From Chiloscyllium plagiosum (taxonomy: Eukaryota), in assembly GCF_004010195.1 (NCBI RefSeq), contig NC_057754.1, positions 9,349,849 through 9,369,848 of the forward strand: DNA of 20,000 bases, given 5' to 3'. A model generated the notes under the pieces. It saw only the letters and a list, made by a program, of their open reading frames with translations, was not told the origin of the DNA and did no database searches. Every line of letters begins with the position of its first letter. Position 1 is the first letter of the stretch. The translations under genes and the position numbers were made by a program. Below are positions 4,791-17,649 of the stretch, piece by piece.

Positions 4791-4879
4791 GGTGAGGGAA
4801 CTAAGGGAGATTAGAAGAGAAGACAAGAGTTCACAAAATACTTAAGAGAAGAAACTGGCACTAGAATTGATAGTAGCAA

Positions 4880-5020
4880 GTGACTGTACATGTACATGAA
4901 TAACATGCAAGGGTATGGAGATAAAGCAGGAGATTGGCACTAGCTAACTGTGCTCATTTAACGATGCAGATACAATGTGTCAGATGGCCTCCATCTGTGC
5001 CAAAACACTTCTGTGATAAT
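4880..5020 (+). mobile_element. Decayed CR1 3' tail
   Basis: gggtatggagataaagcaggagattggcactag ... gatggcctccatctgtgc, typical of the ORF2 end and 3' UTR. Confidence 0.5.
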
Positions 5021-6815: not shown

Positions 6816-7014
6816 GTTGATACATAACCATGAATATATCAATGGTGTTGCCAGAGGTGAAGGACCTTGTGTGTCAGACTGTCAAATATTGTATGCTCTC
6901 TCACATGCTATTGAGGTCAATACACGCTGTGCTAAAATAAACTGGACCTGAAGCTTGAGAAGTAAAGGTTTTAGATTGTAGTCATTAAGGTTAAATTGGA
7001 GTAGGGAAGTAATT

Positions 7015-7353
7015 GGTGGCACGGTGGCTCAGTGGTTAGCACTGCTGTCTCACAGTGCCAGGGTCCCAGGTTCAGTTTCACCCTGGGTGACTGTGTGGAG
7101 TTTGCACATTTTCCCATTGCCCATGATGGGTTTCCTCTGGGTGCTTCAGTTTCCTCCCACAGTCCACAGTGCCGGGTGGGTGGATTGGCTAAGCTAAATT
7201 GCCCATAGTGCCCAGGAATGTGCAGGCTAGGTGGATTAGCCATAGGAAATGCAGGTTTACAGAGATGGGGTGGGTCTGGGTGGGATACTCTTTGAAGGGG
7301 TGGTGTGGATGCAATGGGTCAAGTGGCCTATTTCCACACTGCAGGGATCCTAT
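7015..7353 (+). mobile_element. HE1-type V-SINE (variant)
   Basis: ggtggcacggtggctcagtggttagcactgct head, V-domain, duplicated gtggattggc/gtggattagcc segment, LINE-like tail. Confidence 0.9.
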
Positions 7354-8668: not shown

Positions 8669-9844
8669 TCACTTGTGACCTTGCTGGTGTCTCAGCAGGT
8701 GGGATGACTGAGTAAATGCCTTTCCACACTTGCAGGTGAATGGCCTCTCTCCAGTGTGAATTCGCTGGTGTGTCTGCAGGTGGGATAACTGAATAAATCC
8801 CTTCTCACACTCAGAGCAAGTGAATGGTCTCTCCCCAGTATGAACCCGCTGGTGCGTCAACAGGTAAGATAACCGAGTGAATACCTTCCCACAGTCAGAG
8901 CAGGTGAACGGTCTTGCCCCAGTGTGAACGCGCTTGTGCACACTGAGGTAGGAAGAAGACCTGAACCTCTTTCCACAGGAAGTGCAGCTGAACGGCCTCT
9001 CCTCAGTGTGAATTTGTTGGTGTTTTAGCACATCAGAGGTTTGTGAAAATCCTTTCCCACATACAGGGCAAGTGAATGGTCTCTCCCCAGTGTGAACATG
9101 CTGGTGTGTCAGTAGTTGGGATGATCGAGTGAATCCCTTTCCACACTTGGAGCAAGTGAATGGTCTCTCTCGAGTGTGAACCCACTGATGTTTTTGCAGA
9201 CTGATTGACCGAGTAAATCTCTTGCCACATGAGGAGCAGGTAAATTGTCTCTTTCCAGTATGAACTCGCTGGTGTCTCAGCAATTGGGAAAACTGAGTGA
9301 ATCTCTTGTCACATTCTGAGCAGGTGAATGGTTTCTCCTTTGTGTGGACTCTCTGATGTGTCAGTAGGATGGAGGACTGCGTGAATCCTTTACCACACTC
9401 AGAGCAGGTGAACGGTCTCTCACCAGTATGAGTGCGTTGATGGATCAGCAAATTGTGGGACTGAGTGAACGCTTTCCCACACTCAGAGCAGGTAAATGAT
9501 TTCTCTCCAGTGTGAACATGCTGGTGTCTCAGCAAATTTGATGAACGAGCAAACTGTTTCCCACAAACAGAACAGGTGAATGGCCTCTCCCCAGTGTGAA
9601 CACGTTGGTGTGCAGTGAGGTTGGCTGACTGCCTGAAACGCTTTCCACAGGAACTGCAGCTGAATGGCTTCTCCTCAGTGTGAATAAGCATGTGTTTCTG
9701 AAGACTAGATAATACTGTGAAACCTTTCCCACATGTAGAACAGCTAAATAGCCTCTCTCCAGTGTGACTGCGCCGATGAATTTCCAGCTGGGATGGGTAA
9801 TTGAATCCCTTCCCACAGTCGCCACATTTCCACGGTTTTTCCAT
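8669..9844 (-). CDS. Tandem C2H2 zinc-finger protein (ZNF-B): 14 fingers, last with CxC spacing, no effector domain in this exon
   Basis: 391-aa uninterrupted [22 protein letters not shown]...HLLRHQQGHK with TGERP-type linkers; clear paralogue of ZNF-A. Confidence 0.93.
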   Translation of the reverse strand: MEKPWKCGDCGKGFNYPSQLEIHRRSHTGERLFSCSTCGKGFTVLSSLQKHMLIHTEEKPFSCSSCGKRFRQSANLTAHQRVHTGERPFTCSVCGKQFARSSNLLRHQHVHTGEKSFTCSECGKAFTQSHNLLIHQRTHTGERPFTCSECGKGFTQSSILLTHQRVHTKEKPFTCSECDKRFTQFSQLLRHQRVHTGKRQFTCSSCGKRFTRSISLQKHQWVHTRERPFTCSKCGKGFTRSSQLLTHQHVHTGERPFTCPVCGKGFSQTSDVLKHQQIHTEERPFSCTSCGKRFRSSSYLSVHKRVHTGARPFTCSDCGKVFTRLSYLLTHQRVHTGERPFTCSECEKGFIQLSHLQTHQRIHTGERPFTCKCGKAFTQSSHLLRHQQGHK

Positions 9845-9952
9845 GGGGTCCTCGGGTCTCTCCCTAGTGGATGATTGATGTAAGCCTCATCCAAACACAG
9901 AACTCATGTAGACATTAGGTTTCCTTCCATATGTAAATCCTCTCCCAAGACT

Positions 9953-10092: not shown

Positions 10093-10715
10093 GCAAAGGC
10101 GTTGTTGTAATGTCACTGAGCAAGCTAATGTTCTGGAAACATGGGTTCAATTCCCACTAGAGCAGGCAGTGAAATTTTGATTCAATACCAAAATCCGTGG
10201 GCGGCACGGTGGCACAGTGGTTAGCACTGCTGCCTCACAGCACCAGAGACCCAGGTTCAAGACCCACCTCAGGCAACTGACTGTGTGGAGTTTGCACGTT
10301 CTCCCCGTGTCTGCGTGGGTTTCCTCCGGGTGCTCCGGTTTCCTCCCACAGTCCAAAGATGTGCAAGTCAGGTGAATTGGCCATGCTAAATTGCCCGTAG
10401 TGTTAGGTAAGGGGTAACTGTAGGGGTATGGGTGGGTTGCGCTTCGGCGGGTCGGTGTGGACTTGTTGGGCCGAAGGGCCTGTTTCCACACTGTAATGTA
10501 ATCTAATCTAATCAAGCTGGCCTAACCTCTGTCAACTGTTGTAAAATCACATCGGATGCACTAATGTCCTTTAGGAAGGGAAATCTGCCATCTTTTCCCA
10601 ATCTGGCCTACATGTGACTCCAGACCCACAAAGTGGGTGGTTTCACCACCTTATGGACACTGAGGGATGGACAACTAAACACAGGCCTGACCAGAGATAA
10701 CCACATCCAATTAAC
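10093..10715 (+). mobile_element. Older tRNA-derived SINE split by the HE1 copy at 10198-10513
   Basis: B box gggttcaattccc at 10143-10155. The body resumes after 10513 (cactaatgtcctttaggaagggaaatctgcc...ctggcctacatgtgactccagaccc). Confidence 0.65.
10198..10513 (+). mobile_element. HE1-type V-SINE, young full-length copy
   Basis: CpG-retaining full consensus with (aatct)n tail; nearly identical to 15628-15928. Confidence 0.93.
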
Positions 10716-11095: not shown

Positions 11096-11305
11096 ACCCC
11101 TCGGAAACTCGTTATTGCAGGTCAGCGATGGATTGACACACAGCAAACCTCAACTGAGAGGAATGTTTGTTTCACCTGGTCTCTCTGTCAACTCCTTTTA
11201 AAGGAAATTCAGTGGCAGGCGTTCACACGGAACAGGTCCTGTGAGCCTGCTTTGCTAATCAACATAACAAGGGGTGATCTTCTATTTCAGTGATGTGGAG
11301 AAGGT

Positions 11306-11472
11306 TAAAAAAATCACACAACACCCAGGTTACTGTCCAACAGGGTTGTTTAGAAGAACTAAATTAAATTCTGTGTCTTATGATCCTGCTCCACAGCTCC
11401 CTGATGGAGGAGCTGCATTCCGAAAGCTAGTGCTTCCAAATTAAACCTGTTGGACTATATTGTGTGATTTTC
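11306..11472. mobile_element. Penelope-type fold-back element (second family) with hammerhead-like core
   Basis: Inverted repeats aaaatcacacaa 11310-11321 / ttgtgtgatttt 11460-11471 and gtccaacagg 11335-11344 / cctgttggac 11446-11455. Core CTGATGG-A-GGAG-ctgca-TTCC-GAAA-GCTA at 11401-11429. Confidence 0.7.
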
Positions 11473-11670: not shown

Positions 11671-12415
11671 TTTTTCCCCATAGGAGGAGGTGTGGCTCAG
11701 GTACAGGCAGCTAGGATCAAGGGAATCCCTGGAGCTACCTGGGGAATACAGGAGTTTATTGAAGAATGAAATCAGGAGGGCAAAAAAAGGGGCACGAGAT
11801 AGCCTGAGCTGAGAAGATTAGGGTGAATCCAAATAGGTTCTTCAAGGAAAAATAATAACGAGAAAGAGAATAGGCCCCCTCAATGACAGATGTATGTGGA
11901 ACCACAGGCAATATTCTAAATGAATATGTCTTCTCTGTGTTTATCAGGGAGAAAGACATGAAGACTTGGGGAAGTTACAGGTGATATTTTGAGGACAGTC
12001 CATTTCACAGTAGTGGTGGTGTTTGATGTATTGGAATGTATAAAGATGGATAAATCTCGTGGTCCTGACCAAATATATCTAAGAACACTGCAAGAGAAGA
12101 AATTGCAGGGTCCCTGACTGATATTTTTGCATAATCGTTAGCCACAGGTGAGATCCTGGAAGGTTGGAGGGCAGCAAATGTTGTGCCCTTATTCAAGAAG
12201 GGCTGCAAAGAAACACCTAGGAACTACAGACCAGGAAGCCTAACATCTGTGATAGGTACATTACTTGAGAAGATTCTGAGAGATAAGATATCCAAGCATT
12301 GGGTAAGATGGGGTTTTGTGCATGGGGGATCATGCCTCACACATTTGTTTGAGTTCTTTGATGAAGTGACCCAGAAGTTTGACGTGGGCAGGGCGGTAAA
12401 CATAGTCTATATGGA

Positions 12416-12537
12416 GAAAGTGAGGACTGCAGATGCTGGAGATGAGAATCGAGAGTGTAGTGCTGGAAAAGCATGGCTTCCTGATGAAGGGCTTATGCCT
12501 GAAACATCGATTCTCCTGCTCCTCGGATGCTGCCTGA
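12416..12537 (+). mobile_element. 122-bp Penelope-type insertion (third family) within a CR1 reverse-transcriptase region, 9-bp TSD
   Basis: Flanked by CTATATGGA at 12407-12415 and 12538-12546; removing it restores AVNIVYMDFSKAFDEV. Confidence 0.85.
12481..12515 (+). ncRNA. Minimal type I hammerhead ribozyme-like motif (slightly decayed)
   Basis: CTGATGA-A-GGGC-ttat-GCCT-GAAAC-ATC-gattctc: intact CUGAUGA and GAAA cores, 4-bp stem II with one G-U pair, and an NUH triplet AUC at 12506-12508. Confidence 0.6.
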
Positions 12538-12760
12538 CTATATGGACTTCAGTAAGGCTTTTGATGAGGTTCTTACAGATAGGCTGCTCTGGAAGGTTAC
12601 ATTGCTTGGAATCCAGGGGAAGCTGGCAAATTGGATACACAATTAGCTTGATGGTTGGAAGCAGTGGGTAACAGTGGAAGGATGCTTGTTGGACTAGGGG
12701 CCTGTGAATAGTGGAGTGCCTCAGGAGTCAGTGATGCTCCATTACTATTTGTTATCTACA

Positions 12761-14391: not shown

Positions 14392-15250
14392 TCATGGACA
14401 TTATAGCACAGAATGAGGGCATTCTGCCCTTGAAGTCTCCATAGCACAATCCAGGCTGTCACATTCCACTCAATTCACAATGCCCTGCAAGGTTATTTCC
14501 TTGGGTATGGATACAATGTACTTGATAAATCATTGACCACTTTCTGAGACCACCTCTCTCTTAGGCAGTGAGTTCTGGGTACTTCCACTTGTTGCATAAC
14601 AAACATCCTCTCATCCTCCCTGCATCCTTTCCCAAAAGCCTTGTAGGGTGACACGGTGGCTCAGTGGTTAGCACTGCTGCCTCACAGCGTCAGGGACCTG
14701 GGTTCAATTCCAGCCTCAAGTGACTATCTGTATGGAGTTTGCATGTTCTTATGTGTCTGTATGAGTTTCCTCTGGGTGCTCTGGTTTTCTCTCACAATCC
14801 AAAGATGTGCAGGTTAGGTGAATTGGCCAGGCTAAATTGCCCAGTGTTGAGGGATGTGTAGGTTAGGTGTATTAGTCAGGTAAATGTAGAGTAATAGTGT
14901 AGGAGAATGGGTCTGGATGGGTTACTCTTTGGAGGGTTGTTGTAGATCTTTTTGGCCAAATGGCCTGTTCCCACACTGTAGGGATTCTATGATCTGTCTT
15001 CCATAACCCTTGGCCCATCACAGAACGAACATAATATTTTGTCTACCTCAAATAAATCTGTCAAAATCTTGCAGATCTAAAGTGTGCGGACTGAACTGGG
15101 CTCTGGGTGTGTTCTAAACAGAGCTTTATAAAAGGTCTGCACTTTTTTCCCTGCTTTTGTTCTCAACATCTTTATTTGTGACAAAATGTCCTGCTACTTT
15201 CAAAAATCTGCACACGTCAAACTCCCAGTCCCTGTGTCTTTGCACTCTTT
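14392..15250 (-). mobile_element. Highly decayed CR1 3' fragment, interrupted by HE1 at 14646-14993
   Basis: Tail-like catggacattatagcacagaatgagggcattctgccc; weak similarity to the other antisense CR1 ends. Confidence 0.4.
14646..14993 (+). mobile_element. HE1-type V-SINE
   Basis: Head, V-domain and tail as in the other copies; CpG-decayed. Confidence 0.9.
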
Positions 15251-15300: not shown

Positions 15301-15486
15301 AAAAACCAAAACACCTGCAGATGCTGTAAATCTAAAATGAAAACAGAAATTGCTGGAAAAGCTCAGCAAGTCTGGCAGCATCTGTAAAGAGAAATCAAAC
15401 ATTTTGAGTCTGGTGAAGGGGTCACCGGATCCAAAATGTTAACTCTAATTTCTCTTCACAGATGCTGCCAGACCTGCTGAGCTTTT
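15301..15486. mobile_element. Penelope-type fold-back element with decayed hammerhead core
   Basis: Near-perfect 39-bp inverted repeat 15357-15395 / 15448-15486. Centre reads gagt-CTGGTGA-AG-GGGTC-accg-GATCC-AAAA-TGTT-a-actc. Confidence 0.75.
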
Positions 15487-15627
15487 AAGTTTTTTTTATT
15501 TCAGTTGAAGGTTGATTTCCCTGGAATTTAGTATATTAAAGCTTTGATTATATTAATTGGGAATGCAACATTAGAATGGAACTATTATTATGAATCCACC
15601 AAACCACATTTAAAAAAAATCTCCTTA

Positions 15628-15928
15628 TGGGTGGCACGGTGGCACAGTGGTTAGCACTGTTGCCTCACAGCGCCAGAGACCCGGGTTCAATTCCCGCCTC
15701 AGGCGACTGACTGTGTGGAGTTTGCACGTTCTCCCTGTGTCTGCGTGGGTTTCCTCCGGGTGCTCCGGTTTCCTCCCACAGTCCAAAGATGTGCAGGGTC
15801 AGGTGAATTGGCCATACTAAATTGCCCGTAGTGTTAGGTAAGGGGTAAATGTAGGGGTATGGGTGGGTTTTGCTTTGGCGGGTCGGTGTGGACTTCCACA
15901 CTGTAATCTAATCTAATCTAATCTAATC
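15628..15928 (+). mobile_element. HE1-type V-SINE, young copy with short tail deletion
   Basis: Near-identical to 10198-10513 but lacking about 21 nt (gttgggccgaagggcctgttt); (taatc)5 tail. Confidence 0.93.
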
Positions 15929-17085: not shown

Positions 17086-17649
17086 TAAGTCTCTAAAGCA
17101 CCACGATAACTTTATGTACACTGAAAAAGTCCAGCTGTCCTCACCACTATCCTCTCTATTTTCCACTTTGCTAAATTAGCAGGCTGTTTATCTGACATAC
17201 AGTATTGACTAAAGATATATTTTCCACATTATAATTTGGAAGGTTAAAGCTATTGTCTCTAATCGCTACTTTTTAAAAAGTTGTTCCCTCATGACAGAGT
17301 CCAGCCCTCTCCTAGAACTGTGCGAGGCTGGCCCTGTGGTCAGGGTGGTAGGAGGATGCAGTGAATATCTTTCATCATGGGGAGCAGCTAAATGGCCTGT
17401 CCATGATGTGAACTCCTATGTTCTTACAGTCACTGAACCATGCCCCACAGAGAGGATGAGAGAGCAGTCTCTTGTCAGTGTGAGGGAACTAATGCTCCAT
17501 TAGTTGCACTGACCTCATGAATCTCTTCCCACATATTGAGTAGGTGAGTGTCCTCTTCCTATTCAGAGTTCATGGGTGAATCAGCATGTTTACCTGTTGT
17601 GTCAATTTCAACAGGAAGAGAACCATCTCTTACCACTTCACCCACTGGT

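Follow-up and report, generated by a model that had tools for sequence, protein, structure and literature searches.

The 122-bp insert found in the window (the whole 20,000-nucleotide stretch of Chiloscyllium plagiosum DNA that was analysed) is best read, with a probability of about 0.75, as a dead two-piece stub of a Penelope-like element (PLE) in an old LINE, likely formed by twin or dual priming of both nicked target strands. It consists of two oppositely oriented segments from the 3' end (pLTR) of one abundant PLE, is flanked by a target-site duplication (TSD), and belongs to a family whose members have two preferred 3' ends and are linked to a reverse transcriptase (RT) and a GIY-YIG endonuclease. 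An earlier note, made from the letters of the window, had interpreted it as a non-autonomous, ribozyme-containing RNA mobilised in trans, an interpretation that is partly supported.

The 9-bp sequence CTATATGGA stands twice, at 12407-12415 and 12538-12546 (both + strand), with the 122-bp insert between the copies, exactly as the earlier note had described the duplication, and deletion of the insert together with one repeat copy yields the in-frame AVNIVYMDFSKAFD; the claim that excision restores VYMDFSKAFD is borne out, and in frame. A retrotransposed insertion with a true TSD, as had been proposed, is likewise upheld. The ends are not precisely delimited by the TSD as had been stated, however: the last three bases of the left TSD (GGA) are also the element's own terminal bases, a microhomology with its tail terminus, and the first base of the right TSD (C) also prolongs the forward arm.

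The host is a decayed LINE reverse-transcriptase fragment (11998-12736, + strand, sharing 64-82% identity with the best copies from the unselected genome sample), and the in-frame stop codons further on in its frame, downstream of the insert, indicate that it is dead. By its motif, this LINE would be CR1-like. Its flank falls to chordate RVT_1-type clusters at 0.95-0.96, and Pfam and PDB searches with pieces of the LINE gave nothing useful or significant. The CR1 label fits the abundance of PLE and CR1 elements in the whale shark, as outlined in 10.1101/443036. The insert was rightly regarded as foreign to the LINE: among 22 uninterrupted copies of the motif in 800 kb, a set that the motif pattern retrieves by design, none is followed by the element's tail, and the possibility that the insert is a normal part of the LINE was rejected. 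The YMDF motif of the LINE was also rejected as a preferred insertion target, with 1 of 32 pairs within 100 nt compared to 0.18 expected (P ~0.16 as worked out by hand, not significant). At L158 (~45-250), another inverted copy of the family has a LINE copy's YMDF motif ~20 nt away. In the contigs of four runs, which are swamped by repeat copies, no joint skipping exactly the insert, as expected of an empty site, was found among the best 15 of 305 joints; one contig fits the left junction without a difference, but has just 19 letters on one side, fewer than the search requires.

Other features of the window include a 178-aa stop-free frame (12135-12671, + strand) that spans the LINE RT and the whole insert and is taken as incidental, and weak Rfam hairpin-ribozyme matches within the LINE at 12153-12270 (E = 1.2 and 7.1), which are far below gathering scores and are taken as chance. 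Two open C2H2 zinc-finger array exons face each other (840-1901, + strand, 353 aa; 8669-9886, - strand, 405 aa; both measured stop to stop), with a possible third C2H2 zinc-finger remnant near 17364-17559. A SINE-like repeat of ~300 bp is present in five copies (2537-2829, 7008-7343, 10193-10495, 14640-14980 and 15623-15926).

The inverted tail arm of the insert (12413-12473, - strand, 90% identical to positions 226-286 of a 287-nt family reference) represents the extreme 3' end of the pLTR and includes the roughly 35-nt PLE tail, and the forward hammerhead arm (12478-12538, + strand, 97% identical to reference 159-219) begins at the 5'-end hotspot of the family and stops ~33 nt before the usual internal end. 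The left half of the insert lies on the opposite strand to the ribozyme, which the earlier note had missed. Two of the 61 positions of the forward arm, 12500 and 12506, depart from the reference; both are CpG sites, and the attribution of both deviations in the hammerhead core to CpG decay holds. Four bases at the internal junction (12474-12477) represent filler or else prolong the tail arm in a variant form; no matching continuation is present in any of 93 parsed unselected arms, and the 14-base junction word was seen at no other examined locus. There is no overlap between the arms, since the tail arm stops at 226 (at 222 if the junction bases are variant) and the forward arm at 219, leaving a gap of 2-6 nt in reference coordinates.

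The 9-bp inverted repeat that had drawn attention in the insert (12444-12452, + strand, with its partner at 12507-12515) is present, but it is a by-product of inversion combined with private substitutions and not a family feature: the exact 9-mer occurs in 0 of 30 parsed tail arms, on which ground it was rejected as a functional element. The repeat arises because the RNA contains two similar words, one following the cleavage site and one where the tail begins, and inversion sets these in opposition. G12444 reads C in most related contigs (four runs).

A similarity search with the insert in the window's genome returned 1,472 candidates, of which 40 were scored, and every one of the 29 best loci besides the insert showed opposed arms. 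A search with the 62-bp hammerhead arm by itself, using a program that passes over very frequent words, gave no hits. When the hammerhead region was searched by pattern, which selects consensus-like copies, 118 exact matches were obtained (0 in a reversed control); 30 of them were read, and the family reference was built from the eight with full ends (CUGAUGA box beginning at 162, predicted cleavage after 189, end at 287). An unselected sample (80 stretches, each of 10 kb, taken at round positions from 32 large scaffolds; 766,160 non-N bases) contained 139 arms touching the hammerhead or the tail, comprising 32 head-to-head pairs and 75 unpaired arms. This density, 181 arms per Mb, extrapolates to a genome total of several hundred thousand arms, diverged sister subfamilies counted in. 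The 3' ends of the arms, taken as BLAST edges (some near 242 mark subfamily divergence), fall at 282-287 in 50 of 139 and at 241-256 in 57 of 139, and the distance between these two preferred ends is that of the 30-40 nt PLE tail; eight of the 139 arms end at or before 225, and three at 221-223. Anchored direct repeats were identified at 19 of 24 full-tail pairs and at 0 of 552 swapped controls. The TSDs of the 19 pairs are 12-20 nt long with up to one mismatch (lengths that include microhomology, from a search that reported no repeats under 9), and 15 of the 19 have 1-4 nt of microhomology with the tail terminus.

The survey bears directly on the proposal that a discrete 122-nt non-autonomous ribozyme RNA, similar to a retrozyme, was moved in trans as a unit with defined ends. 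The TSD and the minimal hammerhead are real, as this proposal would have them, and animal non-LTR retrozymes are themselves proposed in 10.64898/2026.07.22.740005 to derive from PLE pLTRs. Among the 29 closest relatives (the best of 1,472 candidates), however, none shares the right end of the insert, none has a hammerhead arm that stops by 225, and none contains the junction word, which is also absent from all 80 unselected 10-kb stretches; junction sequences differ from copy to copy in the family. Thus, there is no 122-bp family. Nor is there a tandem array, and one half of the insert runs antisense to the strand of the ribozyme. The 122 bp combine a forward hammerhead arm with an inverted tail arm, both from the 3' end of a protein-coding PLE, and a discrete RNA mobilised in trans is largely refuted, being extremely improbable at this locus.

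The minimal type I hammerhead core at 12481-12508 (+ strand) has the CUGAUGA box, an extra A, a 4-bp stem II (12489-12492/12497-12500), the GAAA box and no loop 3, with predicted cleavage after 12508. Its identification in the earlier note was correct, a descriptor finding one site in the window, this one, and so was its assignment to the minimal type I form of PLEs, with a stem III that is palindromic in the family. In this copy neither the G10.1-C11.1 pair nor the stem III palindrome is intact: T at 12500 weakens the closing pair of stem II, which is now G-U, and A at 12506 breaks the palindrome. Because it also has no tandem partner, the copy is predicted to be inactive, and the ribozyme here, single and decayed, would be a passenger.

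The descriptor for minimal hammerheads has 43 hits in 800 kb of unselected sequence, compared to 0, 0, 0, 0 and 1 in five shuffles, and these hits match the motif definition that PMC4209133 gives for minimal PLE hammerheads. The extra A is present in 39 of the 43, and the 15.2/16.2 pair is palindromic in 28 (CG in 24, GC in 4). The stem II sequences of other families differ yet still pair, whereas inside this family stem II exhibits decay, not covariation. Among the 95 arms covering the core, the family state is retained at five key positions in 28, and 30 are unparsed; four have the same double CpG change as this copy. No Rfam hammerhead was found in the window at E values up to 10, and none in an intact-core copy either, so these Rfam models do not see the minimal form. 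Single-strand folding gives no active hammerhead fold in the copy or in the reference, the core boxes pairing together; this outcome is what a minimal motif would be expected to give and does not test its activity.

The window contains other repeats of similar build. A PLE-type inverted insertion of a different family (11295-11471) has two arms in opposite orientation (11335-11361, 11428-11455) and, at 11401 (+ strand), a decayed hammerhead core; it gave 26 BLAST hits in the 800-kb sample. A third hammerhead-bearing, roughly palindromic repeat (1-195, core at 105 on the - strand, 36 BLAST hits in the 800-kb sample) is cut by the start of the window. A fourth short inverted stub (15315-15486), with its tail-side arm on the - strand, its forward arm on the + strand and a decayed core near 15410, distantly resembles the family of the 12407-12546 insert.

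Coding sequences are associated with the family. Endonuclease-like words are present upstream in 7 of the 30 loci read, and 14 of the 30 have runs of N there. A query from the endonuclease region returned 127,089 candidates, of which 150 were scored and 20 loci fetched; a hammerhead arm lies downstream in sense at 19 of the 20 and a tail arm at the other, a rate that is biased because the query was taken from a locus with a downstream hammerhead arm. Eight further places were chosen for long open frames. One of these, L082, has a 590-aa stop-free frame with RT motifs (Pfam RVT_1, E = 2e-8, above the cut-off), a C-x4-C-x2-C linker that is found in other frames as well, and an endonuclease region, followed 156 nt after the frame by an arm (4828-4887, 92% identical to that of the window). 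At L070 a GIY-YIG match falls just under the cut-off (E = 2.6e-4, 21.7 bits versus 22.6); L077 gave RVT_1 below the cut-off, L071 nothing, and four short endonuclease pieces no relevant Pfam family. The 659 homologues include proteins of 800-900 aa with RVT_1 (PF00078), some of them also with GIY-YIG (PF01541), and the closest named homologues are those of sharks and rays. No intact full-length parent was recovered among the loci read, L082 being 5'-truncated and apparently shifting frame internally. According to the classification in PMC8557442, a CX2-5CxxC zinc-finger linker between RT and endonuclease (EN) marks Neptune and Nematis. The linker of the shark parent conforms to this Neptune/Nematis definition. 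Going by host range, the parent may be Neptune rather than Nematis. Judged by these sequence features, the insert is a 3' fragment of an EN+ PLE with a Neptune/Nematis-type linker.

The insert may have formed in the following way. The GIY-YIG endonuclease would have cut the old LINE with a 9-nt stagger, after which the top-strand end would have paired through three bases with the end of the RNA tail and been extended by ~60 nt. The bottom-strand end would have paired through a single base with the RNA internally, at reference 219, which is upstream of the usual site at ~252, and its extension by ~60 nt would have run as far as the hammerhead's front edge, the point at which most family copies stop. 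The two cDNA ends would have been joined without clear microhomology, and CpG decay would afterwards have altered two ribozyme bases. That each target strand primed one arm is the simplest reading. A gap without overlap between two arms is the pattern described for L1 twin priming in PMC2837659, where twin priming (on one RNA) and dual priming (on two RNAs) are presented as indistinguishable from sequence. An internal end like that of the insert recurs in the family at L120, where the forward arm stops at 221, nearly the same point, with an 18-nt TSD.

Two observations count against this account. Arms without overlap were found in none of the 24 tight pairs of the unselected sample (gap up to 15, eight looser pairs left out), which counts against twin priming at insertion, and, at 9 nt, the TSD falls below the 12-20 nt range of the 19 family pairs. 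These leave room for a later deletion: an ordinary inverted copy, with a forward arm to ~252 and a TSD of 12-20 nt, could have lost ~35-40 bp at its right end, an event that would explain both the short forward arm and the short TSD. In agreement with a deletion, the hammerhead arms of all 29 closest relatives run past 225, and a C stands on either side of the would-be deletion. Such a deletion would, however, need an endpoint only a few bases from the TSD and, in RNA coordinates, 2-6 nt from the beginning of the other arm. Three of the 139 arms do end at 221-223, one of them (L120) with an intact 18-nt TSD. A deletion is on balance unlikely, and priming from both nicks is preferred.

Self-priming, in which a cDNA folds back and copies itself into an inverted pair, has been proposed for rotifer PLEs in PMC3846280, and many junctions of the shark family are short palindromes with 1-4 nt of overlap, as fold-back would produce. 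The two arms of this copy have no sequence in common (159-219 versus 226-286), which means that neither is a fold-back copy of the other. Elsewhere in the family, 6 of the 24 tight pairs have a forward arm whose 5' reach exceeds that of the tail arm by more than 8 nt, and a forward arm extending past the tail arm in this way is not a copy of it. At this locus fold-back survives only in combination with a later deletion and is very unlikely.

Priming of both strands would accord with what is described for known PLEs. The typical layout of EN+ PLE insertions, Pen2a_Av included, as presented in PMC3846280 and PMC8557442, is one of inverted, head-to-head pLTR pieces with the tail on one arm, surrounded by a TSD (9 bp for Pen2a_Av as well, according to PMC3846280); strong 5' truncation and a parent with RT and C-terminal GIY-YIG are also shared, but the insert is far shorter (122 bp, no ORF), its arms do not overlap and its forward arm stops upstream of the usual internal end. 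In the in vitro work described in PMC11167929, the lizard element PAc (Poseidon of Anolis carolinensis) introduces nicks in both strands and extends them, starting at two RNA positions that flank the tail, much as the shark family has two RT start sites bounding its tail; hammerhead cleavage was not needed for insertion in those experiments, and RNA reads ending at the cleavage site are lacking in both cases, as far as that report describes them. These in vitro data concern a Poseidon element, of another clade than the shark parent, which has the C-x4-C-x2-C linker, and shark junctions often have 1-4 nt of target microhomology, whereas the PAc start site is described in PMC11167929 as non-homologous to the cut DNA. 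L1 twin priming, as characterized in PMC2837659, likewise yields two inverted segments from one RNA that are enclosed by a TSD and show a small internal deletion; unlike L1, the insert has no poly(A) and depends on a different endonuclease, and in contrast to classical L1 inversions the arms of most shark family copies overlap by ~90 nt.

The ribozyme, too, has close counterparts. The minimal hammerheads of metazoan PLEs set out in PMC4209133 share with the shark family the CUGANGA box, the extra base before stem II, the G-C closing pair, the absence of loop 3 and a palindromic stem III, and dispersed single motifs and nearby opposite-strand pairs are already described there; this copy differs in that its closing pair is G-U, its palindrome is lost and its stem I has ~2 bp. 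The non-LTR retrozymes of 10.64898/2026.07.22.740005 also have a type I hammerhead and a proposed origin from PLE pLTRs, but are depicted there as head-to-tail tandem arrays with one ribozyme per unit, in contrast to the single head-to-head stub of the insert.

The 5' ends of the family are concentrated at the front edge of the ribozyme. In the 24 tight pairs, 35 of 48 5' ends fall at 151-168 and 3 of 48 at 186-195, and in the contigs of another sample, loose ends with unrelated upstream sequence peak at reference 157-159 (520, 645 and 426). With its position ~30 nt upstream of the predicted cleavage site, the hotspot is not accounted for by cleavage; candidates are the start of a short pLTR transcript, a splice boundary, or a stop of RT at an RNA structure. 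The hotspot word (reference 156-162; first read base, window 12478) fits the initiator consensus, YYANWYY. A pyrimidine tract ending in YAG is located ~20 nt upstream of the hotspot, and a start site and a splice acceptor could each be relevant to the hotspot. The Penelope element of D. virilis is described as having an internal promoter (PMC2377424) and, in PMC4209133, an intron that ends at helix I of the hammerhead. In the open literature that was searched, neither the 5' hotspot nor twin priming by PLEs was found stated; supplementary figures of PLE ends may show the pile-up.

The short RNA acting in trans that the earlier note had envisaged has a mixed outcome here: the family pile-up (35 of 48) at the front edge of the ribozyme could fit an RNA initiated in the pLTR, but one RNA run contains no such end. 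In that poly(A) single-cell run (~2% of the run sampled, with 3,945 reads over the element), reads cover both strands, 94% continue into unrelated sequence, and no pile-up of RNA starts or ends is reported; a second RNA run placed 0 reads on the element. The RNA-end result is a weak negative, both for the short-RNA idea and for cleavage. It is conceivable, though doubtful, that the stubs are copied from an RNA of ~130 nt, initiated in the pLTR and twin-primed by the RT and endonuclease of the element, and that here the second primer blocked the first RT. If so, this RNA would start at the initiator-like front edge of the hammerhead and end at the tail, constituting a built-in non-autonomous template, and this copy would represent twin priming on a single RNA, with arms abutting without overlap.

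The insert is an ordinary truncated, inverted PLE stub, one of very many in the genome and of a kind already described. As a dead repeat within a dead repeat, the locus has its value as a fossil of the still unsettled insertion step of PLEs: its non-overlapping arms argue for priming from both nicks and against self-priming, and the pile-up of family 5' ends ~30 nt upstream of the predicted cleavage site argues that ribozyme cleavage does not set the template's 5' end.
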